Positions 3,366 to 45,757 of a stretch of DNA of 64,000 nt are shown here, piece by piece (positions within the stretch are counted from its first letter, which is position 1; the number at the start of each line of letters is the position of its first letter). The notes beneath the pieces are model-generated. The model was not told the origin of the DNA and did no database searches. It worked only from the letters and a program-made list of their open reading frames with translations. The DNA comes from Thermoproteota archaeon. Its GTDB lineage: Archaea > Asgardarchaeota > Jordiarchaeia > Jordiarchaeales > Freyrarchaeaceae. The position numbers and the translations under genes are program-made. Where the stretch lies: assembly GCA_029258835.1 (NCBI GenBank), contig JAPDJY010000023.1, forward strand, positions 1 to 64,000. The letters are read 5' to 3'.

Positions 3366-3562
3366 TCCGCTGAACCCCTACTGCTTCCTCCCTTTAATTT
3401 CTCCTTCTGCAACTATCGTCTCCCTAAAGGGATGTTTCTTGGGGAGGGAGATGCCAGCTGGGTCGGGTGAACCCTACAGCTTACTGGGGGAACGTTACGT
3501 GCCTTTCTCCCTCAACCCTCTTTGCATCACATGGCGGTATTTCGGAGCATTCCGGGCTTATC

Positions 3563-16894: not shown

Positions 16895-17006
16895 AAAGCT
16901 TAAATTGAATAAACGGAAGAACCCCCTTCAAATGTATGTGTGCGTGAGCCTCTTATAGAGAAAAACTTTATGAAAAAATGGGTAATCAAGAGAAAGTAGA
17001 TTTAAA

Positions 17007-17131
17007 TGGTAGCCCGGCCAGGATTCGAACCTGGGTCCCAGGGTCCAGAGCCCCGGATGCGTAGCCCCTTGGAGCGCTTGGCCACTATGCCACCTAGCCA
17101 CAACCGTGCTAGGAGGCTACACCACCGGGCT
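17007..17131 (-). tRNA. tRNA-Gln(CUG) with two non-canonical D-loop introns (17116-17085, 32 nt; 17077-17061, 17 nt), CCA encoded
   Basis: Removing both gives the 76-nt AGCCCGG-TG-GTGT-AGTGGCCAA-GCAT-C-CGGGG-CTCTGGA-CCCTG-GGAC-CCAGG-TTCGAAT-CCTGG-CCGGGCT-ACCA. Confidence 0.9.
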
Positions 17132-17363
17132 TCAGCCTCAAGTTTAGACACGAAATTTTATATAGTTTTCGAGTCGAGGGTTTTGGTAACTCTTCGGGAG
17201 ATAAATTTATTATGGGAAGGAGTCAAGGCTGTTGAAAGCAGGCATGGTGAGGGCTCTTCTTTTACCTGTCTGATATGCGGGTTCAGCTGGTGAAATGCCT
17301 GAATGGGCGATTCCTATTGCTTAAACGTGGAGGTTTCCAAGGCTAAATGGAAGGATACGGAAG

Positions 17364-17678
17364 CTACATCTCCCTGAGGTATCTTTCGCCCTTCCTCGTG
17401 ATCTCCCAGACTTCTATTTTGTTGATGAAGCCCTTCTCCCTCAACCCCTCCAGAAGGGATGCGAGGGCTTCCCTTTGCACGGGCTCCTTCCCCACAGCCT
17501 TTCGCGGAGCGTTGAACTCCGACAGGATCTGGTCTAGCAGCTTACGCTGCCTAGATAGGATCTCAAGCACGAAGACCTCGTCGTCGCTCAGCCTCTCCTC
17601 GAGGGGGGGACGCTCCAGCTTCCCCCTAGCCTCAGCCCATTCGGGAACCCTGCCTGACCCACCGCCTTCCCTCTCCAT
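17364..17678 (-). CDS. Small hypothetical protein, winged-helix-like C-terminus
   Basis: LEGLREKGFI...WEITRKGERYL pattern; directly downstream of fusA. Confidence 0.6.
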   Translation of the reverse strand: MEREGGGSGRVPEWAEARGKLERPPLEERLSDDEVFVLEILSRQRKLLDQILSEFNAPRKAVGKEPVQREALASLLEGLREKGFINKIEVWEITRKGERYLREM

Positions 17679-17751
17679 CCTAACATCTCCAATACCTAGA
17701 GGAATGGTGGACGGAAATATTGATCGGGTTCAACCCCTTAAAGCTTTCCTG

Positions 17752-19956
17752 CTAGAGGGTGTCTATGTACTCTTCGGGTTTCGGTGGCTCGGGCTTCAGC
17801 CCCTTCCGTTTCCGCACCTCCGCTATCACCTCGCCGAGAAGGGACTTGGGCACCTCGGCCCACCGGGAGAACTGGGTTTGCCAGAAAGCCCTGCCCGAGG
17901 TCTTCGACCGGAGCTCGTTCGCCAGCCCGAAGCTCTCCCTGACCGGGATCTCGCCTGTTATGAAGGCTAGGGGGCCCTTCTGGTCCACGCTCAGAACCTG
18001 GCCTCTACGCTGGGAGAGAACGCTTGAAATGACGCCGATGTAGTCGGGTGGAACACTCACCTGAATCTTATATATAGGCTCTAGAAGTGTTGGCTTGGCG
18101 CTCAGGAACGCACCCCAAGTTGCACGCCTAGTCATGGGCATGATCTGTGCGGGCCCCCTGTGAACCGGGTCCTCGTGGAGCTGGCAGTCCACCACGTTGA
18201 CCTTTACACCCCGCATCGGCTCCTCGGCGAGGGGGCCAGCCTCGCAAGCCCACTTAGCCCCGGAGATTATGGTGTCTCTGACCTCACGCAGGTACTGGAT
18301 ACCCCTCGTCCTGTCCACGATAACGTTAAAGTGCTCGTCTATCGCCCATAGGTTCCTAGCGTCCTGAGAGTCCCAGCCAGCCTTCTCCCTGAGGATGCGC
18401 GCCCTCTCGTTCCTATCCTGATACTCCGAGATCTCCCCCTCAGCAATGAGGTTGATCGTCTCCTCGTTAAGAGGCTCAACAACGATCCAGATACGGTTAT
18501 GCTTATTAGGGCTCTTACCCAGTATTGGAGGAGAAGTGGACGTCACAGTCTCCCTGTAAACAACTATCGGAGGCGAAACAGTCACCTCTATCTGAGACTG
18601 GATCTCCTTAAGAGAAATTTCAAGGTGAAGCTCACCCATACCCGACAAAAGGTACTCCCCAGTCTCCTGATTAATCGTCGCAACAAGGTTCGGATCCTGA
18701 ATGGAAAGCTTCTGCATCAAGTCAACAAGCTTAGGCAGATCCCTAGGATGCTTAGGCTCAACCGCGACGGTAACCACCGGCTCCGAAACATACTTAATCT
18801 TCTCAAAAGGAGCCACAGAATCCTTAAACTCCTCAGCCACAACCGTCTCACCAGCCCTAGCAAGCTCCAACCCAAGCATAGCCGCAATGTTCCCAGCAGG
18901 AATAGACTTCACAATAGCCCGCCTAGCCCCCATGTAAATACTAGTCTGCTGAACCCTATAACCCTTCCTAGCAGTCAAAAGATAAACACGATCACCCTCA
19001 CTGATCGTCCCGGAAAACACACGCCCCGTCGAAACAATACCAGCATGAGGATCAACAACCACATTATTCAAGCAAATAACCGTAGGGCCATCCTCGTCGC
19101 ACTCCAACATAGCCCTCCCGACCTCACCGTTAAGATCCCCATGCCATATTTTGGGAATCCTGTAAGGCTGCGCCTCAAGAGGATTAGGCAAATGCTTAAC
19201 CACCATGTCCAGGACGGCGGCGTGCACCGGAAGAAGCTTCCTAAGCTCCTCAACGTTCTCCTCCCTATAGTACGCCACAATGTCACCAAACTTCAACCCA
19301 AGCTCCTGCATCTGCGGAATAGTGAAACCCCACCCATGAAGCGCAGACCCAAAAGCAACACTACCATTAGCAGGATTAACCCTCCACTTCCCCGCAAACT
19401 CCTTCTCACCATACAAACTAATCAAACCATTAAAGTCACGAATAATCCTGTTAAACTTCTCCTGAACAGCACGATCATCAAGCTTCAACTCACGAATCAA
19501 ACGATCAACCTTATTAATGAAAAGAACAGGCTTAACCCGCTCAGCCAAAGCCTGCCTAGTCACAGTCTCAGTCTGAACCATAACCTCCTCAACAGCATCC
19601 ACAACCACCACCGCACCATCAATGACACGTAAAGCCCTAGTCACATGTCCCGTGAAGTCCACGTGTCCAGGGGTATCCACTAAATTAATTAAATATTCGC
19701 GCTCATCCACCTTGTGAAGTAAGGATATGTTCGCTGCTTTTACTGTGATCATCCTTTGTTGCTCGACTTCAAGGTAGTCTAGTGCTCGTGCTTGTCCGGC
19801 TATTGTGGGTGATAGTAGGCCTGCTTCGGCGAGGAGGGAGTCTGAGAGTGTTGTTTTGCCGTGGTCTATGTGTGCTATTATTCCGAAGTTTCTTATTTGC
19901 TCTTTTTTGGTCATCATTTTCGTTATTTCTTCTATTAATTTGTGTCTTGATGACAT
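17752..19956 (-). CDS. fusA: Translation elongation factor EF-2
   Basis: AHIDHGKTT, DTPGH, NKVD and diphthamide loop LHEDPVHRGPAQ; 734 aa. Confidence 0.98.
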   Translation of the reverse strand: MSSRHKLIEEITKMMTKKEQIRNFGIIAHIDHGKTTLSDSLLAEAGLLSPTIAGQARALDYLEVEQQRMITVKAANISLLHKVDEREYLINLVDTPGHVDFTGHVTRALRVIDGAVVVVDAVEEVMVQTETVTRQALAERVKPVLFINKVDRLIRELKLDDRAVQEKFNRIIRDFNGLISLYGEKEFAGKWRVNPANGSVAFGSALHGWGFTIPQMQELGLKFGDIVAYYREENVEELRKLLPVHAAVLDMVVKHLPNPLEAQPYRIPKIWHGDLNGEVGRAMLECDEDGPTVICLNNVVVDPHAGIVSTGRVFSGTISEGDRVYLLTARKGYRVQQTSIYMGARRAIVKSIPAGNIAAMLGLELARAGETVVAEEFKDSVAPFEKIKYVSEPVVTVAVEPKHPRDLPKLVDLMQKLSIQDPNLVATINQETGEYLLSGMGELHLEISLKEIQSQIEVTVSPPIVVYRETVTSTSPPILGKSPNKHNRIWIVVEPLNEETINLIAEGEISEYQDRNERARILREKAGWDSQDARNLWAIDEHFNVIVDRTRGIQYLREVRDTIISGAKWACEAGPLAEEPMRGVKVNVVDCQLHEDPVHRGPAQIMPMTRRATWGAFLSAKPTLLEPIYKIQVSVPPDYIGVISSVLSQRRGQVLSVDQKGPLAFITGEIPVRESFGLANELRSKTSGRAFWQTQFSRWAEVPKSLLGEVIAEVRKRKGLKPEPPKPEEYIDTL

Positions 19957-20044
19957 GCTTTCTACCTCCTTTAATTGAAAGTGTTAGAGGGGTGAGCGTT
20001 TCATTTTTTGCGTTCCTAATTTCAAACGTTTCATTTATTCCTTT

Positions 20045-23000
20045 CTATGTTCTATTTTTTTGGTGTTTTCGCGTTATGAGATTGGCTGGCAGAGTTTTCC
20101 TAAACTTGTATAGTTTAAGGTTGATGGGTCTGGTGTCTACTCCCAGCAAGAATTCTATTTCTACGGTACCCTTTAACTCTTCCGGTTTCGCGTCAATGCC
20201 CATCTCCTTGAGTTTTCCCGCTATCTTCTCTGCACCATCCTTCTTCCTTATCAGCTCGTAAAGCCTCCAAACATGGATAACTTCCACCTTTTTTCCATCC
20301 GCTATCTTTGCTTTAATATATGATGGTTCTCTCTTATCGTGGAGAGGTTCTATTGTGATTTTCCCCTTTTTTGCTTCCATTTTCCCTTTAATTATCCCGT
20401 TTAATGCTTTGAAAGTTTCTATTGGAAGGACAATCCTCCTTGTTACTTTCACTATGACTGGGCAAAGCTTGGGCTCTTCCCTCAGTTTTCTTAAATTTAT
20501 GTTTAAGGTTTCTAAGAAATTTCTGGTGGCTTCCACGAGTTTGTTTGTTGTAGTAAGTTTGCGAACGTAGCCTTTAGCTTGTTCCACCGCAGTTTTAATA
20601 GTCTCGATTTTTACGCCCGCCTCCATTAGAGCCTTTCTCGTTTTGAAGGCCCAGTAAGGTGTCAAACGGTATACTTTACTATCTTCTTTAACGTTAACCG
20701 CTCCCCGTTTTTCTATTTCTCTTTCGTTTTTCTCTAACCATTCTGCGATACGCTCCGCGATAACGCCCTCCAGCCTCACTTTAGCTCTTCCAGCAAGTCT
20801 ATGTGCTAACGCGTTGAGTAATTCGATGTCTTTCGTTTCGGGTACAAACGGTGTAATTGCCATAGCTAAGCTACCATTGAAAAATAACGTCATGTGCGCG
20901 GTTAACTTTTTGACATGACCATCCTTAAAAATAACTGTGAATTTCTTTATGGTTATTGATGGCTTCCCTTCTGTTTCTGTTATCTTTATTCCTAATGTAT
21001 CGGCTGTTTTGGCGTAAAGCAGAGCTAACTCTGCTATCTGTGCTAGTCTTGGATGGGCGAGCTCCTTCACAACTAGATCCTTTCTAAATAAATATCTGAT
21101 GGCTTTTGATGTTACCGCATATCGGTTACTGCTCTCTTTTATCACTCCACCTCTCTTCATCATCGCTTCTAATGCTTCCTTTAGGGTTTTTGGTGGGTTG
21201 TTAAGGAACGTGTTTTTTTCGAACAATCCTCTCTTAAACCGCCTTGCACCATTCAGCTTTAACTCGCCACTCTGCCCCACCGTAATATTAAAATTCTTGA
21301 TGCTTATTGTCCCGTCTCCCATTATGAGCGTTCCTAGAAGGTTAGCAGTGAAGAGAGCTGCAAGCCTCCTCTTCCACGTGACCTTGCTTGTAGCCATTTC
21401 TCTAACCCATTCCATAAGTCTTTCAGGAATGACTGAAGTTCTTCTTGTCTTAAAGCCTGGCTCAAACCCCAACCCCGCAAGAAATTCCCCAGCGGCACGC
21501 GACTCAACTCTGTTTTCCACACCTCTACTTATCCTTGTTCTGGGGTTCCCATTTGTAAGCCGTCGTATTATCCATGATACCTCCTCAACCTCTTCCTTCC
21601 TGTAGGAGGAATACCCAAACAAGTGTTGTTGGGTTAAGTCTCCGTCTCCTATTAGAGCACCTATAAGCTTACCAATTAATGCTACCCCTTCCTCAACGGA
21701 AACGTCAATGTCAAATACATTCCTACACTTCCCTACAATTTCGGTTAGATCCCCCTTCGTTCCAGAGAACAGCTCCCTCAAACGACCGTATCCTTTAATT
21801 GAAAAATCTACAGGTTTTAGATTTTTGATTACTTCCTTGGCGTCTTTTATGCTGAGAGCTACCGCTATAAAGGCTATTGCGTCAACAACAAGTAAACCAT
21901 CAAGTCTCCTTTGCCCATGAAAAACATACTTGGAGAGACCTTCTGACCTTGTCCCTTGAAGAAATTTCGGAAATTTTGTTGCGTAGCCGAGGGTTCGATA
22001 TGCTTTTTCCAGCTTGTCTTTCAGCGTGTTCTTTCCGTTTTCCTCCACATAATACCTTGTTAGGTGGATGTCTGCTTTAATAGGTCCCCTCGGCGTCAGG
22101 ATCCATCGTACTCGGTAGTCTCTGGAGGCAACGAGGCATCCGTACGACAGGAAGGGAAAACGCCCAACTTTCTCGAGGCCCTGCTGGAAACCCCCAGCTT
22201 TCTCTATCAACGAGAACGTGGACGTAACCACCCTTTTCATAAACCAATTATAATCAAAACATGCTCCTTCCAGATTAAGAATGAAGGAAACTAAGGAAAG
22301 CCTCCAACCACTTATAGTCCTCAACATTGCTCTTAGAATGCTGGACACGATAACTTCTTTTTTGTCAAGTGTCTCGGCGAGCTTCTTAACAACTTTGCTA
22401 AAACCTACCTCCTCTATTTTGGCGTGGAGCTCCCTCCACCCCTTAACGATACGTGCACGGTCTCCCCTCACCTCGGCTTCAACCGTGAAGCCCTTAAACT
22501 CCCCTATCAGCCTAACATTCTCCGCCCTCTTAACGAAATCGTTTAAAGGGATTTCCGCCTCCCCACCCCGACCCCTGACACGTACCCTCCCATCTCTAGC
22601 CACAGCTCTAACCGGGTGGCTACCAACCACCCCCAAAACCACAATTTTCTTCGCTCCCGCCAACCCGCAAACCAGCCCAAAGGAACCAACAGGGACACTT
22701 ATCCTACCAGTTAAACGTAGCATAGAAATTTCGTCAAGTAATTCTGGATCCTTCTTCGTTTCCTCCAGTAGTTCCTTTGCTTTATCTTTTCCAAGCAGTT
22801 CTTCGAATTTACCGTTAATCCATTCTTTAACTTTTTTGTATCCGTTATATTGTGTAAGCAGCTTGCTGGCTTTGGCTTCTAGATCCGTTGGCGCCGCTAC
22901 CCCTTCGCCTAGCGTTCTCTTTATTGCTTTTACGAGGATTCTTGCAGGGACGTAATTTGTTAATCCGAGACCGTCAGCTAGTTTACGCAGCTCCTCCGCC

Positions 23001-24652
23001 TCAGCCCCCATTCCCGCTTTCTTAAGCCTTTCTATTTCAGCCCTCAGAACATCTCCGGCTGTGGCGTCTGCGTCGGCTTTTATAAGTGTCATAAGCATTC
23101 TTCCGATATCCCTTGCCTTAACCTCTTGGTTGCTGGCTAAAGCATCCATCTGCCTTCTTAAAACATCTAGAACCTCTCCACCTGTCATATCCCTCCCCCA
23201 GAGCTTGAGCTTCATATCCTTCACAGTTTCCAATACGTCTGCTGGGCGTGGCCCAGTAATCTCAAGGATGGCTAGGCTTGCTGGAATGAACATGTTGAGA
23301 TCCGCCCTCCCCTTAGCAATCCATTTAAGCGCTTCTGGGCTAACATCCCACGCCTTGCAAAGCCACCCAGCAATCTCTCTCTTCTGAAGAATGGAGCGGG
23401 CAACTTGAGCCATCCAGCCTGGCACAATCACCGATATGCCTTGAAGTTTGCGGATGCTACCGAGTAAACCATAAACCTCACGGCGAAGTCCAATGTCATC
23501 CTTTAAGCACCCTCTTACCCTCTCAATAATCTGACTAACATTTTCCGCGGCTTGAGAACGAAGACGCCTAACAATACGGTCAAAAGCATCTAGAAACCCT
23601 GTACACCATGAAAGGTCAACGAAAGCCGAATTCTTAACCTTAAAGCTCTTTTCCACCCTCCCTATCCTGTTGTCATTCCACCTCACCATACGCCACTGTT
23701 CACCCCCTCTCCTCTCCCCTCCCTTCCTCGACCCCTCATTCCCTCCTCCTGGCACCTCTCCTTCCTGGCTGCGCCTCCCCTCTCCTAAGGTTCCCAGCGT
23801 GATTGTTTTTCCGGGCTTGGGGTGTTGGGGGGTTGGGGGGTTGGGGGTTTTTCCGCGTGTTTTTTCTAGGGTTGGGAGGAGGGCTGCCAGCGCCTTTACG
23901 GCTGTGGCTGGGGATAGCAGGCCTAGGAAGGCTTTTAGCTCCTCCACCTCCATCCCCGCTTTCTCGGCTAGCTCGTCGAAGCTTACCCCGCTTTCCTTCA
24001 CGGCTTCGAGGACCCTCACCGCCTCCCCAACCCCTGCGAGCCTGGCTTCACCCCCCACCACCTCAACCCTGACGCCGCCCACCTTTGGCAGCAGCTCGAG
24101 TAGGGCTTCAGCCTTCCTCAGCTTGATGGGCTTCCTTGCTGCAGCCTCGAGGTCCCTGATGCCTGCCCCCACCCTGCAGCACCGCTCAGCCAGCTCCCTG
24201 TCAGCCAGCACGGCTCGGGCTGCGTCCGCAACTTCGTCGGGGGCCAGGGCGTAGCTCCTCCAGCCCTCGTCCACCCACCAAACCCCGGCAACCCCGCTGA
24301 GAGCACGGCCGGCCTCAACCCTCCCCTCACAGCAACCCCTCACCACCCCCGCAGCCCTCACCATACCCGGAAACCTGTCCGGGATGCTTCCGTGAGCCCA
24401 GGAGGCCAGCGCCCGGAACCCGAACCCCTCCCCCCTCCCCGAAGGCGGCACGTAAACCCTCCACCCCCCAACCCAGAGGGTGTCGAGCGGCCTGCCACAC
24501 GGCTTCACAGCCGGGAACCCGAGCAGCCACCCCTCCCTGTTAAGCCACTCCACGTGCCCCGAGAACCCCTCCCGCCTCGCCCCCTCCTCAACCTCCCTGA
24601 TCCCTTCAGCTCTCCTGTGCTCCCTTGACCCTTCTCCTCCTTCGAAGACCAT
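20045..24652 (-). CDS. Very large hypothetical protein containing a double LAGLIDADG-like endonuclease domain
   Basis: KLIGALIGDGDL and NLLGTLIMGDGTI motifs ~110 aa apart, with LAGLGFEPGFKT between them; mosaic composition. Confidence 0.6.
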   Translation of the reverse strand: MVFEGGEGSREHRRAEGIREVEEGARREGFSGHVEWLNREGWLLGFPAVKPCGRPLDTLWVGGWRVYVPPSGRGEGFGFRALASWAHGSIPDRFPGMVRAAGVVRGCCEGRVEAGRALSGVAGVWWVDEGWRSYALAPDEVADAARAVLADRELAERCCRVGAGIRDLEAAARKPIKLRKAEALLELLPKVGGVRVEVVGGEARLAGVGEAVRVLEAVKESGVSFDELAEKAGMEVEELKAFLGLLSPATAVKALAALLPTLEKTRGKTPNPPTPQHPKPGKTITLGTLGEGRRSQEGEVPGGGNEGSRKGGERRGGEQWRMVRWNDNRIGRVEKSFKVKNSAFVDLSWCTGFLDAFDRIVRRLRSQAAENVSQIIERVRGCLKDDIGLRREVYGLLGSIRKLQGISVIVPGWMAQVARSILQKREIAGWLCKAWDVSPEALKWIAKGRADLNMFIPASLAILEITGPRPADVLETVKDMKLKLWGRDMTGGEVLDVLRRQMDALASNQEVKARDIGRMLMTLIKADADATAGDVLRAEIERLKKAGMGAEAEELRKLADGLGLTNYVPARILVKAIKRTLGEGVAAPTDLEAKASKLLTQYNGYKKVKEWINGKFEELLGKDKAKELLEETKKDPELLDEISMLRLTGRISVPVGSFGLVCGLAGAKKIVVLGVVGSHPVRAVARDGRVRVRGRGGEAEIPLNDFVKRAENVRLIGEFKGFTVEAEVRGDRARIVKGWRELHAKIEEVGFSKVVKKLAETLDKKEVIVSSILRAMLRTISGWRLSLVSFILNLEGACFDYNWFMKRVVTSTFSLIEKAGGFQQGLEKVGRFPFLSYGCLVASRDYRVRWILTPRGPIKADIHLTRYYVEENGKNTLKDKLEKAYRTLGYATKFPKFLQGTRSEGLSKYVFHGQRRLDGLLVVDAIAFIAVALSIKDAKEVIKNLKPVDFSIKGYGRLRELFSGTKGDLTEIVGKCRNVFDIDVSVEEGVALIGKLIGALIGDGDLTQQHLFGYSSYRKEEVEEVSWIIRRLTNGNPRTRISRGVENRVESRAAGEFLAGLGFEPGFKTRRTSVIPERLMEWVREMATSKVTWKRRLAALFTANLLGTLIMGDGTISIKNFNITVGQSGELKLNGARRFKRGLFEKNTFLNNPPKTLKEALEAMMKRGGVIKESSNRYAVTSKAIRYLFRKDLVVKELAHPRLAQIAELALLYAKTADTLGIKITETEGKPSITIKKFTVIFKDGHVKKLTAHMTLFFNGSLAMAITPFVPETKDIELLNALAHRLAGRAKVRLEGVIAERIAEWLEKNEREIEKRGAVNVKEDSKVYRLTPYWAFKTRKALMEAGVKIETIKTAVEQAKGYVRKLTTTNKLVEATRNFLETLNINLRKLREEPKLCPVIVKVTRRIVLPIETFKALNGIIKGKMEAKKGKITIEPLHDKREPSYIKAKIADGKKVEVIHVWRLYELIRKKDGAEKIAGKLKEMGIDAKPEELKGTVEIEFLLGVDTRPINLKLYKFRKTLPANLITRKHQKNRT

Positions 24653-24962
24653 GGAGCTACCCCCGAGCTCTTCTGCGCTTCAGGGTTGCCGCCGGGCCGG
24701 TGCTGCTGTCAGGGTCAGGGTGGCTGCGACCACCTCCTTCCTCAACGGCCATCACCCCTCTCCACCTAGCTAAACCACACTCCCCAACCCCCAACTAACA
24801 AACATATATTTTACTGTTGTGGGCTGAAAAATATAAAGAATTGAGCTTTCAATCGAATCAAATGCGAATCTTCGCCTCCCCTCTGCATAATATTCAAAAA
24901 ATGCATGTTTACTTTGGCTTGTCTACGATTTTTCACGTTGCTACATCATGGTTTTTGTATTT

Positions 24963-25286
24963 TTAAGAGAAATTATGTTTTTGAGGGAGAAAAATAAATT
25001 TTTGATGGCTAAAAGAGAATTCCTTATAATTTTTGTATGTGTTTTGTGTGGTGTGATCGCCCATAATCCGGGTAGCAACGAATTGGTTAGACTGGTGATG
25101 AAGAAGTAGTGCTCGTGCTTGTCCGGCTATTGTGGGTGATAGTAGGCCTGCTTCGGCGAGGAGGAAGTCTGTAAGCGTGGTTTTTCCGTAGTCTATGTGG
25201 GCTATTATGCCGATGTTTCGGACTCTTTCTTTTTGCTTCATCATTTTTACTATTTCGTTCACGGTTTTGATCCTTGCCGATGGCAT
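24963..25286 (-). pseudogene. fusA: Duplicated EF-2 5' fragment (~60 codons), then unrelated sequence
   Basis: RNIGIIAHIDYGKTTLTDFLLAEAGLLSPTIAGQARAL; 58-bp perfect identity between 25107-25164 and 19780-19837. Confidence 0.9.
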
Positions 25287-25431
25287 GATATTTCACCTTC
25301 CTTGTTGGGGGAGGACGGCTACAGTGTTTTTAAAAATTTTTCGGGGGTCGTTGTTTCGGGGCTAGCCGCCCGGTAGGGCCCCTTAGTATGAGGGGTGGCA
25401 TGTATTGCAGGGCCTTTGAGAAGTGCTCCCT

Positions 25432-26220
25432 CTAAGCATGATATGGTATCATGTATTTTATGGTTTTTGCTTCTTCCAAGTTTGGATATATTTTTTCTGC
25501 TAGGTCTCTGCGTCCGATCTTGGCTCTGTTCGCTATTATTACTTTGTCCCATAGGCTGAGTACGTGCTTGTTTCTTAGCACTGCTTCCAGTGCCTTCTCA
25601 CCGTCCCCCCTGACCTCATCTCCTATTTCTTCCATTAACGCTGTCCTGGTAACGGAGATTTCTAGGTCGCTTACGTATATGTTTTCTCTTTCCTTCAGTA
25701 TTTCCTCTGGGTCCCCGTACACCACATCTTCCATTTCCATCTCAAGCTCTTCCAGTTCCTCCTTGGGGAGGATGAACCTGGCATGTATTTTTAGTTCTTC
25801 CCCGTGGAACCAGGGTATAGTGGTTGCCAGCTTGATCCCCTCATCATATAGTTCCCAAGCTATGAGGGCGTGTGCTAGGCGGCCGAAGATTTCTAGGTAG
25901 CGTACCGCGTAGCCATCTTTCCTGATCCTTTCTTCCTCCCTGCATATCCTATCCAGCTCCTTGTTCCATTGTTTCCAGTCTTCTTCCGTTGGGGGCTTAC
26001 TGTCGTCGAGGGGTTCCCTTCCAAGCCACTCCAGAATCTTGCGCGCGAAAGCCCTTGAAAGCTCAACTATCATCTCAAACTTCTCCTTTTCTCCCTTGTC
26101 TCCCATCCTTAGCTTCCTGAAGTCTATTTTTACTAGCCTTTTTGCCTCATCTAAGAGGTTCCCGCTCAGCCCAGCCTTTTCAACATCCTCCAACAGCTTC
26201 TTCAACTCTAACTCTCCCAC
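25432..26220 (-). CDS. Hypothetical acidic helical protein
   Basis: 262-aa ORF, E/K-rich, SD-like GGTGGT upstream. Confidence 0.65.
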   Translation of the reverse strand: MGELELKKLLEDVEKAGLSGNLLDEAKRLVKIDFRKLRMGDKGEKEKFEMIVELSRAFARKILEWLGREPLDDSKPPTEEDWKQWNKELDRICREEERIRKDGYAVRYLEIFGRLAHALIAWELYDEGIKLATTIPWFHGEELKIHARFILPKEELEELEMEMEDVVYGDPEEILKERENIYVSDLEISVTRTALMEEIGDEVRGDGEKALEAVLRNKHVLSLWDKVIIANRAKIGRRDLAEKIYPNLEEAKTIKYMIPYHA

Positions 26221-26230
26221 ACTACCACCC

Positions 26231-26494
26231 TTAACCGGCGTCCCTAGGCTTTCGATGTTTCAGTCGTGCCTTGGTGAGGAGGTCTTCCGGGTCTGGAATC
26301 AACACCACGCTCACCTTCTCCGCCCCCGTCCTCCACTTCTCAACAACAATTTTGTATATTGCTGGTTTGACGTCGAAGCCAGCCAGCAATTTGAGGATCG
26401 ACCACCCCACCTTTTCCCGTCCATTAAGCTTCCCCCTCTCACCGTTGCATTTAAACTCTTCCATCTTTTCCTTGAAGCCGTATGTTGTTTCCAT
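26231..26494 (-). pseudogene. Short ORF, probably the 3' remnant of a longer gene
   Basis: Coding-like but interrupted sequence continues upstream to ~26670; ends 10 nt before the next gene. Confidence 0.35.
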
Positions 26495-26830
26495 GGGGGG
26501 TATCGGTGCTTGCTGAGGGGTGAGCTACGCTTCAAGGATGAGTTCCCCGTTTTCCCCTTTTTTCACCACCACCTTTCCCTGTCTGCACAGGTCTTCCGCT
26601 ATGCTACGCCTTTAACCCTAACTTCCCTGGGGGTTTTTAAGCCTTTCCCGTGTGTTCTTCGTTCATGTTCATTTGGGGTTCATTTATCCTTCCATTTAAG
26701 CTGTTTAGGGGATGGATCGTTGGGGTGGATGCGGTGTTCTTGACGGGAGGAGTTTGTCCTGGTGTTTTTGGTCGGTTTTTAGGTGGTGTTGGGGGTGGAG
26801 GTGGGTTGCGTTTTTAGGTGTGGTTTGGTT

Positions 26831-27466
26831 TCATTTTTGTTGGGTGGTGAGGTGCTTTCCTATTTTCTTGTAGATTGCTATTTTGTTTGTTAGGATGAGG
26901 GCTGCGGCTAGTGCTGCCGGTATTATCACGTTGATGTGGATGGTTGGTGTGAGGGGGATTTCCCATTGGAGGCCGCCGTTAACTAGGTATCCCACGGCGT
27001 AGTGGTAGAATGCGGTTATGGTTAGGGTTGCAGATGCTGTTTGGATGGTGGATGTTGTTATGAGGAAGCGTTTGTTCGTCATTGTTTTGGTTAGGGCTTG
27101 ATGCACTTTTTCGACGGGGTGCTTTGCTTTTAGGATTCCATACCAGTTTGGTGCTGTGGTTGGGTGGAGGTCTAGCGCGAGGGCTGAGGTGAGGGTTAGT
27201 GTTCCGATGATGAATAGGGTGTCGGGGATTGCCGGGTTGGCTGTTATGGGTATCCAGAAGTTGCCGTTTAGGATTAAGTATGAGCCTATGGGTGTTGTTT
27301 TTATGTGGGGGTTGAGGAGGAGTATGGCTGGGTGTGGCTGCGTGGTGTATAGGGGGGTTGAGGGGGATAGGAGGACTGCGATGTTGGCGGCGTAGAAGCA
27401 TATGGTGGCTATGAGGAAGGCGGCTGTTTGGAAGGCTACTGTCCGGTTAACTGTTTGCCTTATCAT
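26831..27466 (-). CDS. Hypothetical membrane protein
   Basis: About 4 hydrophobic segments; strong A/C codon skew; ATG 27466 avoids overlap with the neighbouring gene. Confidence 0.5.
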   Translation of the reverse strand: MIRQTVNRTVAFQTAAFLIATICFYAANIAVLLSPSTPLYTTQPHPAILLLNPHIKTTPIGSYLILNGNFWIPITANPAIPDTLFIIGTLTLTSALALDLHPTTAPNWYGILKAKHPVEKVHQALTKTMTNKRFLITTSTIQTASATLTITAFYHYAVGYLVNGGLQWEIPLTPTIHINVIIPAALAAALILTNKIAIYKKIGKHLTTQQK

Positions 27467-27635
27467 CGTTAGCGCTTGACCTGCCCGGCTCAATTCTTCA
27501 TCCCCAGGCTTTAGGACAAGTTTTGATTTTTCCCTTTTAACGGTTGTGATCTTTCTGTTCGGGAGGGTGAAGGTAAGAGTTATATATGTTGTTTCCTTTG
27601 TTGTTGCCGAAATTTTCGTCAGCAAGGTGGTGCCG

Positions 27636-28721
27636 GTGAACATTACGCGCCTTAAGGTTGAGATTTTGTGCCGTGGCTTGAGGGTTGAGGACGGGCTTAA
27701 CGGGGGTAGAAGAACTGGGGCTGGGCCAGCTGGCGGGAGGCACCTGGTTCTGGATGGCGGAGCAGTTGTGAACGCTCCTGTTTGGCCGTCCTTTGCTAGG
27801 ACGTCGAGGCTTTCCCTGAGGAGGGTGGAGGATAGGTGGTTCGTGTTTGAGGGGGACAGGAGGGTGGTTGAGGTTGAACCTGTCCCTGTTCCGAGGTTTT
27901 ACCATCGTGTCACCTCGACTAGGGTTCCGATGTGGAAGATAGCCCTCCTCCACGGGAGGGACTGTGTTGCCACGACTCTGCTTCAGACCTGTGTGAGGTG
28001 GGCTTCCGGGCTGCGGTGTAAGTTTTGCGGGATAGAGCTTTCCCTTAGGGGCGGCTTGACCGTTGCCCGTAAGACGGCGAGGGAGCTGGTGGAGGTTGTC
28101 GGCGCCGCGCTTGAGGAGGGGGTTTGCAGGCATGTTACGATAACCACCGGCACCCCGGCGTCCCCTGACAGGGGGGCCAGCCTTCTGACGGAGGCTGCCA
28201 AGGCGTTAAAGGAGAGCTATGACGTTCCCGTCCACGTTCAGCTTGAGCCTCCTAGGGGTGAGGGAGTGTTTGGGATGCTCGCCGACGCAGGGGTTGACAC
28301 TGTGGGGGTCCACATTGAGACGTTTGACGAGGAGGTTAGGAGGAGGGTTTGCCCGGGTAAGGCTGAGGTTCCCCAAGAGGAGTACTTTAGGGCTTGGCGC
28401 GAGGCGGTGGACGCTTTCGGTGAGGGGCAGGTTAGCACCTACGTCATCGCCGGGTTAGGGGAGGGGGATGGGAGCATCTTGTGGGGGGCGGAGGAGGCTG
28501 CCCGCATGGGGGTTGTGCCGTTCCTCGTCCCCTTGATTCCGATTCGGGGCACGGACATGGAGGGGTTGAAGCCTCCATCCCCGGAGCGGATGTTCAGGCT
28601 GTATGGGAGCTTGAGGAGGATCCTCCTCGACTTCGGGGTTAACCCGTTGGTTAATAAGGCTGGCTGCGTCAGGTGCTCTTCGTGCTCGGCGCTTAGGGAG
28701 GCGATGATCTGGGGGGTTTAA
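27636..28721 (+). CDS. Radical SAM protein, MSMEG_0568-like
   Basis: ATTLLQTCVRW....RCKFCGIELS (extended CxnCxxC), TITTGTP and KAGCVRCSSCSAL motifs. Confidence 0.85.
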   Translation: MNITRLKVEILCRGLRVEDGLNGGRRTGAGPAGGRHLVLDGGAVVNAPVWPSFARTSRLSLRRVEDRWFVFEGDRRVVEVEPVPVPRFYHRVTSTRVPMWKIALLHGRDCVATTLLQTCVRWASGLRCKFCGIELSLRGGLTVARKTARELVEVVGAALEEGVCRHVTITTGTPASPDRGASLLTEAAKALKESYDVPVHVQLEPPRGEGVFGMLADAGVDTVGVHIETFDEEVRRRVCPGKAEVPQEEYFRAWREAVDAFGEGQVSTYVIAGLGEGDGSILWGAEEAARMGVVPFLVPLIPIRGTDMEGLKPPSPERMFRLYGSLRRILLDFGVNPLVNKAGCVRCSSCSALREAMIWGV

Positions 28722-43570: not shown

Positions 43571-44074
43571 TTAGAGTTTTGAACCGCATTTCGGACAGTA
43601 GATTGCCCAGTTTGGGGGGTTAAACCCGCAGTAAGGGCACCTTCTTCGCCGGCGGGGTTCTGTGGTTCCCGTGAAGACGAGCATCTGCGCCGACTCTATG
43701 GCGTCTAAGGCCTCCCTTTCCGCTTTGTCAGCGTTCCAAAGGTCGAGTATGAGGGGAAACAGGAATATGAAGAAGACGAAGCCGAAGAAGAGGAAGAAGA
43801 GTGAGAGGAGCAGGGAGGCTGCTGCGATCGCTATCGATAGGAGGATGGGGGTTCTACCCAACCCGACCACCAGGTCGTACCTTATGTCGCCGTTTACCCT
43901 CGAAAGCTTTATGCTACCTTTCACGCCGAGCCCCATACGTAGACGCCACTCGTAGGGTCCAACCCTTTTAGTCTTCAAGCTGGTGAAGTTTAGTTCACGG
44001 TCGAGGACGTCGGCGAAGACGTGCATGTACTCTCCTCCACCCAGCACTGAGCCGCTAATATGACGCTCCCTCAA
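43571..44074 (-). CDS. Membrane protein with C-terminal double zinc ribbon
   Basis: Hydrophobic hairpin; CPYCG...YCPKCG. Confidence 0.7.
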   Translation of the reverse strand: MRERHISGSVLGGGEYMHVFADVLDRELNFTSLKTKRVGPYEWRLRMGLGVKGSIKLSRVNGDIRYDLVVGLGRTPILLSIAIAAASLLLSLFFLFFGFVFFIFLFPLILDLWNADKAEREALDAIESAQMLVFTGTTEPRRRRRCPYCGFNPPNWAIYCPKCGSKL

Positions 44075-44445
44075 CGATTCACCTCCAGCGCTCCCCGTTC
44101 ACGTTAGAAAGACAGGGAAGCACTGCTTAAAAAAGTTAGTTTCCAGCGTCTTGCCGCAGGTTACGGCTGCTTTCCTGTTCACCACGGAGGAGGCTGAAAG
44201 AGGCGCTCTTTAAGCGTTTCCCGGCGTGATGGGTGACGTACTGTTTGGGAGGGATCCTGATGCCAAGCTGCTGCGGAGGGAGCCCTTGTATCCCTAAATT
44301 GTGTTGATGGTGATTTAAGGGTTTAGCGGTGTCCGATGTGTTTTTGCTAAGTGTCCTTGGAGTAAGGGACGCGAATGAAAGAATGAAAGAAAGAATGAAA
44401 TAATGAGGGAGGGAGTTATGCAGTACGCACCCTCCGGGTTGTCGA

Positions 44446-44904
44446 CTATTTTAATGCTTCTGGGTTGACGCTTCCATCCTGGAGGAAGAGGCCCTTCTTC
44501 ACCAGTTGGAGAAGAACTCCGTTGGCATGTTTCGGATGGAAGAAGACTGAGAGCAGCTTTCCCGTCGGGGTTCTCCCTGCGAGGGGGATCCCTGCGTCTT
44601 GGAACTGCTTTACAGCTGACTCCACGTCGTCCGCTTCGAACGCAAGGTGGAAAAGTCCCTCACCTCTCTTCCTCAGGTACCTCATGGTTGGCCCCTCGCT
44701 TACCGGCATGACCAGCTCTATGAACGTTCCACCCCCTGCAGGTATGAAGGCGTACTCGAACTCCTCCACTTCTCCCCTCTCCGTAGCGTACTGGCCGCGC
44801 TGGAAAATTATGGTTTCCTCGTTAACTCCAATCGCCCGGCAGTACCTTGAAACAGCAGACTTCAAATCATGCACAACTATTCCAACGTGGTGTAAGCGTA
44901 TCAT
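44446..44904 (-). CDS. VOC-family protein (methylmalonyl-CoA epimerase-like)
   Basis: LHHVGIVV, IELVMP, RGEGLFHLAF and FFHPK..NGVLLQL motifs. Confidence 0.85.
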   Translation of the reverse strand: MIRLHHVGIVVHDLKSAVSRYCRAIGVNEETIIFQRGQYATERGEVEEFEYAFIPAGGGTFIELVMPVSEGPTMRYLRKRGEGLFHLAFEADDVESAVKQFQDAGIPLAGRTPTGKLLSVFFHPKHANGVLLQLVKKGLFLQDGSVNPEALK

Positions 44905-44971
44905 TCAAACCACCAGAAAAAAGAAAGTAGGAAAATAATTTAATAAGGTTCTGGGAGGGTGTTGAAGGAAG

Positions 44972-45757
44972 CTAGAGGAAGTATTCTGCAGTCATTAAGA
45001 CGCCTAGGAAGGCGAATATTGCACCTATAATTTTGCCTAGGGTTTCCTCTGAAACCCTATTTGCCACCGTGGCGCAGAGTCTCCCTCCTCCAACAGCGCT
45101 GACACCTGCAAAGAGGAAGGCGGCGAGGTTAACGTTTCCGTTCATGAAGTGTCCAGCGGCCGCTGAGGCTGCGATGATCGCCATTACCAGCGTTGACGTG
45201 CCGACTGCCTTGTGGAGGTCGTATTTCAGCAGGAATACCAAGATGAGGAGGACCAGTATTCCTCCCCCAGCTCCGAAGACGCCGCTGAAGGCGCCTATGC
45301 AGCATCCAAGCAGTAGGGCGGCAGCCTTGTGCTTCCTAAGCAGTACCTCATCGGGTGCTCCTCTCTCCCTTAGCATGTAAAGGATTCCTTTAACCCCCCG
45401 CTTCCATATGGTGACGCCGCTTAAAACCAGCAGGATGCCAAAGAGCCCGCCGAGGCTGACCTCAGAAATACACGTTGAAAGGCAGCTTCCCAACGGTCCT
45501 CCAACTACTGCTCCGGCTATAACCCATAAACCCGACTTTAAGTCGATGTTGCCGCTCTGCCTGTAGGTATATGCGACGGCCAAGGATGTTACCACGTCGA
45601 CAGCTAGACTGGTTCCTATGGCGGCGTGGACGGGAATGTTGAGCAGAAGGGTTAACCCTGGAACGATGATCATAACGCCACTTGCACCGGTGAAGCCTGT
45701 AACCAAGCCGGCGAGGACTCCCACTGCCACGGTGGTCAGCACCCAGATCCAGTCCAA
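44972..45757 (-). CDS. TauE/SafE (TSUP) family transporter
   Basis: Duplicated G..G.GG / A.GTS motifs; ~8 TM segments. Confidence 0.9.
   Translation of the reverse strand: MDWIWVLTTVAVGVLAGLVTGFTGASGVMIIVPGLTLLLNIPVHAAIGTSLAVDVVTSLAVAYTYRQSGNIDLKSGLWVIAGAVVGGPLGSCLSTCISEVSLGGLFGILLVLSGVTIWKRGVKGILYMLRERGAPDEVLLRKHKAAALLLGCCIGAFSGVFGAGGGILVLLILVFLLKYDLHKAVGTSTLVMAIIAASAAAGHFMNGNVNLAAFLFAGVSAVGGGRLCATVANRVSEETLGKIIGAIFAFLGVLMTAEYFL

Follow-up and report, generated by a model that had tools for sequence, protein, structure and literature searches.

Probable nest of free-standing homing-endonuclease cassettes at the 5' end of the elongation factor 2 gene in an Asgard archaeon

We analyzed positions 1 to 64,000 of contig C7 (C7:1-64000, hereafter the window) from a 2.72-Mb metagenome-assembled genome (91 contigs, 94.7% completeness, 6% contamination) of an Asgard archaeon, concentrating on fusA, the gene for elongation factor 2 (EF-2), and the DNA upstream of it. 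The nearest named genomes are those of Candidatus Jordarchaeales/Jordarchaeum, and EF-2 proteins at ≥90% identity are labelled Candidatus Freyarchaeota or Freyrarchaeum guaymaensis. All features of the locus described below lie on the minus strand. The window contains one intact EF-2 gene (17752–19956, 734 aa), which carries all EF-2 Pfam domains (no other full fusA was found in the assembly), as well as a truncated second copy of the gene start, located upstream in an open reading frame (ORF) of 107 aa (24963–25286). Between them lies a single ORF of 1535 aa, here called big2, with two LAGLIDADG-like motifs. We favor, as probable, the reading that the fusA 5' region is a nest of free-standing homing-endonuclease cassettes that have invaded serially, carrying a replacement promoter and gene start.

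The two EF-2 N-termini share a perfect 58-bp block and diverge upstream of it. A repeat search of the window aligned 19780–19929 with 25107–25256 at 85% over 150 nt, and pairwise alignment showed the final 58 nt (codons 41–59) to be identical (19780–19837 in the downstream copy, 25107–25164 in the upstream copy). Upstream of this block 34 of 117 nt differ, with proportions of synonymous and nonsynonymous differences (pS and pN) of 0.58 and 0.22. Within the block, 19 consecutive third positions are identical next to this diverged tract; the probability of this is approximately 1e-6, assuming that third positions are A or C only and that about half match at random, and the block is therefore not a chance match. 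Homology to fusA stops at 25107|25106. Downstream of the block the fragment shows no fusA similarity beyond chance in local alignment (406 of 500 shuffles score as well), and we therefore rejected the 99-nt spacer at this position (Y, 25008–25106) as a decayed continuation of fusA. A blastn search found no second copy of Y in the genome, and an exact 44-nt search of metagenomes with the repeat gave no match. The truncated copy (N1, codons 1–41, 25165–25286) is strongly diverged, and the 54 nt before it (25287–25340) are promoter-like, with the TATA-like sequence TTTTTAAAAAC at 25326–25336 and the Shine-Dalgarno sequence GGTGA. The motif TTAAAAAC before the truncated copy is also found in the native and sister-genus fusA promoters. 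An earlier note, made from the letters of this DNA alone, had described the two N-termini, the large ORF between them and the retained promoter elements, and on these points our analysis agrees. The truncated copy reads DYGKT (25190–25195) where DHGKT is expected.

Followed from the upstream side, the locus begins with the end of the native left flank (26598–26643), which comprises the leader and the native fusA promoter with the TATA sequence GCTTAAAAAC at 26629–26643. The junction at 26598|26597 corresponds, in the cassette-free allele described below, to 26 nt before the fusA start codon. Beyond it lies an 87-aa ORF (26231–26494), the C-terminal remnant of big1, an older and mostly deleted paralogue of big2. 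It was recognized by tblastn with the big paralogue on contig C31, of which aa 643–721 match 26476–26264 (35% identity; E = 6.7e-8 in the window, 2.9e-6 in the genome). The next gene, small1 (25432–26220), encodes an acidic partner protein of 262 aa (pI 5.1), with homologues beside other big paralogues found by tblastn. We assign big1 and small1 to an older cassette, E1. As small1 and the big1 tail precede N1, the fragment follows the tail of an older big and small cassette. The inner unit comes after N1, the upstream repeat and Y, and is headed by a conserved non-coding block of approximately 215 nt (24790–25007), which is shared with a cassette on contig C5. The block is followed by big2 (20045–24652), a basic orphan protein with a predicted double-motif LAGLIDADG nuclease domain at aa 966–1233 (20954–21757; motifs and AlphaFold2 model). 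A spacer of 88 nt (19957–20044) separates the big2 stop codon from the fusA ATG and holds a replacement leader with a Shine-Dalgarno sequence and A-rich TATA-like repeats; it is homologous to the native leader from approximately position 19968 (BLAST against the cassette-free allele). The intact gene then consists of codons 1–40 (N2, 19838–19956), a cassette-borne and moderately diverged replacement start, the downstream copy of the repeat, a hyper-divergent tract (codons 60–95, 19672–19779) that ends abruptly at the DTPGHVDF motif, and the native body (codons 96–734, 17752–19671), which is near-identical to that of cassette-free relatives.

The cassette-free allele was found in two JGI metagenome contigs, L024 and L026, from near-identical Freyarchaeia/Jordarchaeia relatives. 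Positions 1–2451 of L026 equal window 29042–26598 at 99.3% identity and are followed by 14 nt, after which L026 2466–4252 corresponds to window 19968–18182. In L024, positions 1–699 correspond to window 27283–26598, with the same join to fusA. The flanks in both contigs are 97–99% identical to the window. The gene order in these relatives, a conserved membrane-protein gene, a spacer with the fusA promoter and fusA itself, is also the order in the sister genus. Compared with this empty site, the window holds approximately 6.6 kb of extra DNA (26597 to 19969), and the foreign DNA including the replaced gene start amounts to approximately 6.93 kb (26597 to ~19672).

Comparison with the empty allele shows that the intact fusA is a mosaic. 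The EF-2 proteins of the relatives are essentially identical to that of the window from residue 97 on, with many differences before it. From 19968 to 19669, the mismatches to L024 per 60 nt are 14, 5, 8, 17, and 28 (72 in 300 nt); beyond 19669 there are none for approximately 555 nt. The last mismatch, at 19672, lies in the Thr codon of DTPGHVDF. Codons 2–40 of the intact copy differ from the empty allele with pS 0.38 and pN 0.06, and the 58-bp block with pS 0.49 and pN 0, owing to nine synonymous differences that are all present in both window copies. The tract of codons 60–95 differs at 44 of 108 nt (pS ~1.0, pN 0.24), and codons 96–734 differ at only 21 of 1917 nt (pS 0.03). Thus, foreign codons 1–95 are joined in frame to a native gene body. 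Co-conversion around homing sites typically leaves such a pattern (Edgell et al., 2010, PMC2988022), which supports homing. We read the tract of codons 60–95 as co-converted or as derived from an older cassette. Around codon 59/60, 11 of 50 nt in the intact copy do not match the empty allele, a divergence compatible with self-immunity. The intact EF-2 reads RMITV (19740–19760, codons 66–72) where its relatives have the near-universal switch I sequence RGITI.

The truncated copy is still further from the empty allele, with pS 0.66 and pN 0.18 over codons 2–40. Judged by these distances, neither N-terminus of the window is native, and the truncated one is more foreign than the intact one. We rejected the fragment as a decayed native start, since at the nine synonymous sites it agrees with the intact copy and not with the native allele, and since it sits inside the insert. 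That the fragment is not native-like points to serial replacement. These results modify the picture given in the earlier note, which had proposed a selfish, integrase-free insertion of 5.3 kb that restores fusA with its own 5' segment, or an att-like integration catalyzed in trans, and had asked which of the two N-termini is ancestral. An insertion relative to an empty site, with its own promoter and gene start and without an integrase, is upheld. Its size is nevertheless ~6.93 kb, and what it replaces is 26 nt of the leader and codons 1–95, not codons 1–59 only; the repeat delimits the inner unit, the outer boundary lying elsewhere, and neither N-terminus is the ancestral one.

The large protein big2 consists of a GC-rich, winged helix-turn-helix-like N-terminus (aa 1–250), a low-complexity linker, a central region, the double LAGLIDADG domain and a basic C-terminus; outside the LAGLIDADG domain it is basic (pI 9.8). 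The part of the gene encoding the N-terminal portion is 65–69% GC, and aa 211–245 give a weak match to DprA_WH. The motifs LIGALIGDGDL (aa 996) and LIMGDGTI (aa 1106) are 110 aa apart, and in an alignment of the LAGLIDADG regions of four paralogues the Asp ending both motifs is invariant. An AlphaFold model of aa 700–1400 was poor (predicted local distance difference test score, pLDDT, 42), and Foldseek still ranked LAGLIDADG enzymes first. The AlphaFold2 model of aa 966–1233 (pLDDT 58) has the order alpha-beta-beta-alpha-beta-beta-alpha twice, and its best Foldseek match is the endonuclease domain of the TliVMA intein (E = 9.6e-4). VIA-align, which is independent of Foldseek, aligned the first half with TliVMA (Z 10.6, root-mean-square deviation 3.6 over 96 residues) and I-DmoI (Z 8.9, 2.2 Å over 76 residues), followed by WhiA (Z 7.3–8.2) and I-Tsp061I (Z 7.8); the top 18 rows were all LAGLIDADG proteins. 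A LAGLIDADG fold is supported for the first half-domain of the model. For the second half-domain it is supported by motif and predicted secondary structure only, so that the full saddle is partly shown.

In sequence searches big2 has no match among Pfam, NCBIfam, PHROG, or PADLOC families, including recombinase and intein families, and neither a PDB profile search nor the ESM Atlas returned a match. No Walker A or zinc motif was found, and we therefore rejected big2 as a replicon or helicase. Searches with aa 330–1535, aa 336–1535, and the N-terminal domain retrieved homologues only from the same population. Among 5.8 billion clustered proteins, and in a full HMMER scan of 1.84 billion representative proteins, only big2 and its same-population paralogues were obtained, and the family was not found in 40 related genomes. 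Another Freyarchaeota assembly encodes the N-terminal domain of big2 at 97% identity as a separate ORF (protein P0021); the frame shift lies in the A/C homopolymer-rich linker (window ~23830–23900) and may reflect run-length variation or an assembly error.

Within the genome, five copies or remnants of the big family are present, at approximately 25% protein identity and in different states of decay. Besides big2 there is an intact paralogue of 1024 aa at C5:67830-70904, a paralogue cut by the contig start at C31:36-2261, and a pseudogene with frameshifts and stop codons at C15 ~43863–45270; truncated copies are represented by big1 and by big' on C5. Genes of the small1 type are situated directly downstream of the big paralogues on C5 (C5:70910-71770, 36% identity) and C15 (C15:42958-43722, 57% identity; both tblastn), with a remnant after the C31 copy. 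The small1 protein has no Pfam or PADLOC match, and its family was found only in the same population. The big1 remnant and its partner gene precede the fusA fragment in the order seen at these other loci, which supports serial invasion. The conserved block at 24790–25007 is 84% identical to the sequence before the C5 paralogue, and ~95% in a 129-nt core, although the adjacent big2 and C5 proteins are only ~25% identical. This block contains a micro-ORF of 31 codons (MHFLNIMQRGG..., 24811–24906 on the minus strand and C5:67442-67537); the peptide is identical at both loci, all four nucleotide differences being synonymous third-position changes, and could represent a small protein or a constrained regulatory sequence.

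The paralogues lie at other conserved genes, where the earlier note had suggested looking for them. The C5 cassette is inserted, together with the truncated extra 5' paralogue copy, between hdrA and hdrC and splits the hdrA-hdrCB operon; hdrA, hdrC, and hdrB are contiguous in the sister genome G001. No duplicated gene start was detected at this hdrC locus when one was looked for. On C15, a 5' fragment of mer (aa 1–37) and the intact mer lie on opposite sides of the decayed cassette. Fragment and intact gene can be aligned at 73% nucleotide identity from the promoter through the Shine-Dalgarno sequence and into the coding region as far as the WITDH motif. The cassette orientation is opposite to that at fusA, and only ~17 nt are near-identical at the break, without a long perfect repeat. 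From these loci we think it likely that a cassette comprises the conserved upstream block, a giant basic double-LAGLIDADG protein, an acidic partner gene (in complete copies), and, on the side facing the target, a foreign promoter and start of the target gene.

As LAGLIDADG folds are reused for DNA binding and WhiA is among the structural matches, big and small could instead be ordinary host genes, such as WhiA-like LAGLIDADG-derived regulators, that were duplicated and shuffled, leaving the fusA fragment as a by-product of rearrangement with nothing mobile involved. The HTH-like N-terminus, the basic proteins, and the conserved upstream block with its micro-ORF would agree with this. We nevertheless regard it as quite improbable. 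WhiA has lost the acidic residues at the motif ends, which are kept in all four paralogues. Moreover, the insert is present or absent between near-identical strains, the copies are situated in operons and beside unrelated housekeeping genes with several of them decayed, none of the related genomes searched contains the family, and the foreign gene starts have reached saturation in synonymous divergence.

An assembly artefact, in which the 58-bp repeat led to a false join between two strain variants or between a chromosome and an episome, seems very improbable to us. An exact repeat of this length is within the range of short-read misjoins in a metagenome-assembled genome such as this one, and other assemblies hold big2 and small1 on short contigs only. 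Still, the junctions of the 58-bp block with Y and of N2 through the block to codon 60 must each exist in a real molecule, the junctions at 19672 and 26598 are in unique sequence, and the mer locus independently has the same layout. In addition, independent assemblies also contain big2, small1, and the C31 paralogue. A misjoin would alter only the N-terminus placed before the upstream repeat; the cassette, the replaced start, the junctions in unique sequence, and the mosaic gene would remain.

No integrase, transposase, casposase, or other gene family match was obtained in the insert (19957–26597), antisense ORFs inside big2 included, and an Rfam search of 17000–28000 gave no intron, in agreement with the earlier note, which had seen no recombinase, intein, or intron. 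An intein or intron was rejected, as big2 forms an ORF of its own that ends 88 nt before the fusA ATG and has no Hint or intein Pfam match, and a defence system was rejected on the absence of a PADLOC match. Casposons have a Cas1 casposase, a family B polymerase, and terminal inverted repeats, and one has been reported at the 3' end of an archaeal EF-2 gene. We rejected this possibility as well, given the lack of a Cas1 or PolB match and of terminal inverted repeats, and insertion at the 5' end. Around the 6.93-kb insert no convincing terminal inverted repeats or target-site duplication were found, and its outer boundaries (26598 and ~19672) are without repeats.

The 58-bp repeats that flank the inner unit require consideration of a different mode of entry. 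In this alternative, the inner 5.3-kb unit (25106–19838 plus one 58-bp site) would be an integrative element that entered fusA either by conservative recombination at a 58-bp attachment (att) site or as a circle, through homologous recombination of the Campbell type; we consider this unlikely. The catalyst would be a recombinase acting in trans, host recombination, or an unrecognized activity of the 1535-aa protein, with the LAGLIDADG domain as an accessory. The direct repeats are perfect, and one flank is homologous but diverged while the other is unrelated, as for attL and attR of target-rebuilding elements; one intact tyrosine recombinase (PF00589), the sole one of the genome, is encoded elsewhere, on C50, and most of the big protein is without assigned function. 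Against it stand the absence of a recombinase match in the insert and of a replication gene or NTPase motif suggestive of a circular replicon. The mer locus has the same layout with ~17 nt of near-identity in place of a long perfect repeat, and the outer 6.93-kb insert has no flanking repeat. Furthermore, conservative site-specific recombination would not be expected to produce a gradient like that of co-conversion or identity that resumes sharply at codon 95.

Homing by double-strand-break repair fits the combined observations: presence and absence in near-identical strains, a nuclease gene beside a conserved target gene, a diverged tract beyond which identity resumes abruptly, and a replacement gene end with the displaced end retained. 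From the sequences we infer a nuclease activity, its target site, repair by homologous recombination, and an order of events as follows. The nuclease would cut a cassette-free fusA allele within the conserved 5' coding region, and the break would be repaired by copying the cassette-bearing allele. The recipient would thereby gain the cassette and a cleavage-resistant 5' end, in frame with its own gene body, and the previous 5' end would stay upstream as a truncated fragment. In a first round, E1 (big1, small1, promoter P1, start N1, and probably codons 60–95) would have joined the native gene near codon 95, and the junction at 26598 would have arisen later, through a deletion that took out most of big1 along with the displaced native start. 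In a second round, a younger cassette, E2 (Y, the conserved block, big2, promoter P2, and start N2), would have entered the fusA arm of E1 at codon 59/60, the perfect 58-bp repeat being the short conversion or crossover tract of this second event. Cassettes would thus probably have invaded the EF-2 gene start at least twice.

Several observations weigh against this reconstruction. The displaced fragment is not native-like, which makes the two-step history a reconstruction, and the left junction 26598|26597 has no homology arm, so that the history must include one or more illegitimate joins or deletions. Site-specific integration classically leaves a unit flanked by a perfect repeat such as the 58-bp one, and the ~1,250 residues of big2 without assigned function could hide an unrecognized recombinase. 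No LAGLIDADG family of Pfam, NCBIfam, or PHROG matches big2, even at E = 1, and only the first LAGLIDADG half is modeled fairly confidently (pLDDT ~66–81), the second half being below 50 in parts. The replacement tract and the fragment contain the unusual residues mentioned above (RMITV for RGITI in the intact gene, DYGKT in the fragment). Finally, the order of segments across the 58-bp repeat rests on the assembly of a fragmented metagenome-assembled genome with 6% contamination.

Gene-end replacement by mobile endonuclease ORFs (mORFs) that make gene hybrids is known from fungal mitochondria, namely atp6 of Allomyces macrogynus and atp6, atp9, cox2, and nad3 of Glomus sp. (Beaudet et al., 2013, PMC3630166). 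As at fusA, an intronless endonuclease ORF (LAGLIDADG or GIY-YIG) is found in a conserved gene, a foreign diverged gene end is fused in frame, the displaced end is left beside it, and relatives are uninterrupted (PMC3630166). The Asgard case differs in that it is located in an archaeal chromosome instead of an organelle and replaces the 5' end with promoter and ribosome-binding site, whereas mORFs replace the 3' end. Its proteins are 1000–1500 aa in size, with extra domains, a partner gene, and a conserved upstream block of their own, and the displaced fragment would be the start of an earlier cassette, not the native one.

Free-standing homing endonucleases of T-even phages (SegF, SegG, and MobE), which promote intronless homing, likewise have an intergenic nuclease gene beside a conserved target, with presence and absence among related genomes and a co-converted diverged tract that runs from the gene to the presumed cut site, beyond which the sequences abruptly become identical again (Edgell et al., 2010, PMC2988022). 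In contrast to the fusA case, these are GIY-YIG or HNH enzymes of ~200–300 aa, not LAGLIDADG proteins, their homing leaves no duplicated gene fragment or replacement promoter, and its setting is phage co-infection. With I-DmoI, I-Tsp061I, TliVMA, and PI-PfuI, big2 shares two LAGLIDADG helices ~110 aa apart, the order of the fold occurring twice, and an acidic residue at the end of each motif; it differs from them in having no sequence-profile match, in embedding the domain in a protein five to eight times larger, and in lying outside introns and inteins. Archaeal and bacterial integrative elements that insert into tRNA or protein genes and rebuild them resemble the inner unit in their exact direct repeat and in an element-borne gene end that restores the gene. 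They differ in that the fusA insert lacks an integrase and outer repeats and has a divergence gradient in the target, and in that the mer cassette has no long exact repeat. In the glycosylation islands of Haloferax, free-standing LAGLIDADG genes were proposed to move neighboring DNA by gene conversion (Shalev et al., 2018, PMC5867893). These are also archaeal chromosomal LAGLIDADG genes outside introns and inteins, but the proteins are ordinary members of Pfam LAGLIDADG_2, and neither gene-end replacement nor a duplicated target fragment was reported (PMC5867893). New here are the Asgard chromosome as host, the replacement of promoter and 5' end, the giant sequence-orphan proteins, the partner gene, the conserved upstream block, and the nested serial invasion.

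Tentatively, and with slightly less than even confidence, we propose that these cassettes constitute an undescribed class of archaeal chromosomal mobile element, with a giant, sequence-orphan LAGLIDADG protein and a partner gene, and that they spread by overwriting the promoter and first 40–100 codons of essential genes (fusA, mer, the hdr operon region) with foreign counterparts, can invade each other's arms serially, and leave layered fossils of gene starts. Behavior of this kind in mobile nuclease ORFs has so far been described mainly in fungal mitochondria; if the reading is true, gene-end replacement of the mORF type also acts on Asgard archaeal chromosomes, and thus in the prokaryotes most closely related to eukaryotes, where it affects the starts of essential genes together with their promoters. 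The cassettes would then swap promoters and N-termini of core genes between lineages and turn marker genes into mosaics, as for EF-2, which is in standard use as a phylogenetic marker and whose codons 1–95 differ here in history from the remainder. They would also be a source of new LAGLIDADG scaffolds of very large size that are invisible to sequence profiles. The layered locus would be a natural record of the life cycle of homing endonucleases, with invasion, decay, and re-invasion, and the alleles with and without the cassette provide a target site that can be tested directly.

Some further features of the region were observed. A second, small divergent patch in fusA relative to L024 (18982–19115, 15 mismatches in 134 nt) is probably a separate short recombination tract. 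The fraction of G+T at third positions of fusA is 0.13 in codons 1–75 and 0.89 in codons 106–480, with the switch near 19640–19730, compared with a range of 0.29–0.72 for the ORFs of the genome (1st–99th percentile); the adjoining membrane-protein gene (26831–27643) is also extreme (0.18). We rejected this switch as a mark of foreign DNA, since the cassette-free L024 has the same pattern (0.18, then 0.87); it is a feature of the lineage that is absent in the sister genus. In three sister-genus genomes (L013 ~3405–3440 in G001; L012/L019 in G002; L011/L020 in G004) fusA has a 29-nt insert inside the Asp codon after DTPGHV. The insert forms a conserved hairpin with compensatory changes between the genomes and resembles a mini-intron of the tRNA type (bulge-helix-bulge), here within a protein-coding gene. 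Its site is 14 nt from the end of the divergent tract of the window; G003, the window, and L024 are without it. Speculatively, this proximity would fit a shared, contested nuclease target at DTPGHVDF. Downstream of fusA, at 17010–17099 on the minus strand, a 90-nt Rfam tRNA match (31.5 bits) was detected that ARAGORN missed, presumably owing to introns.

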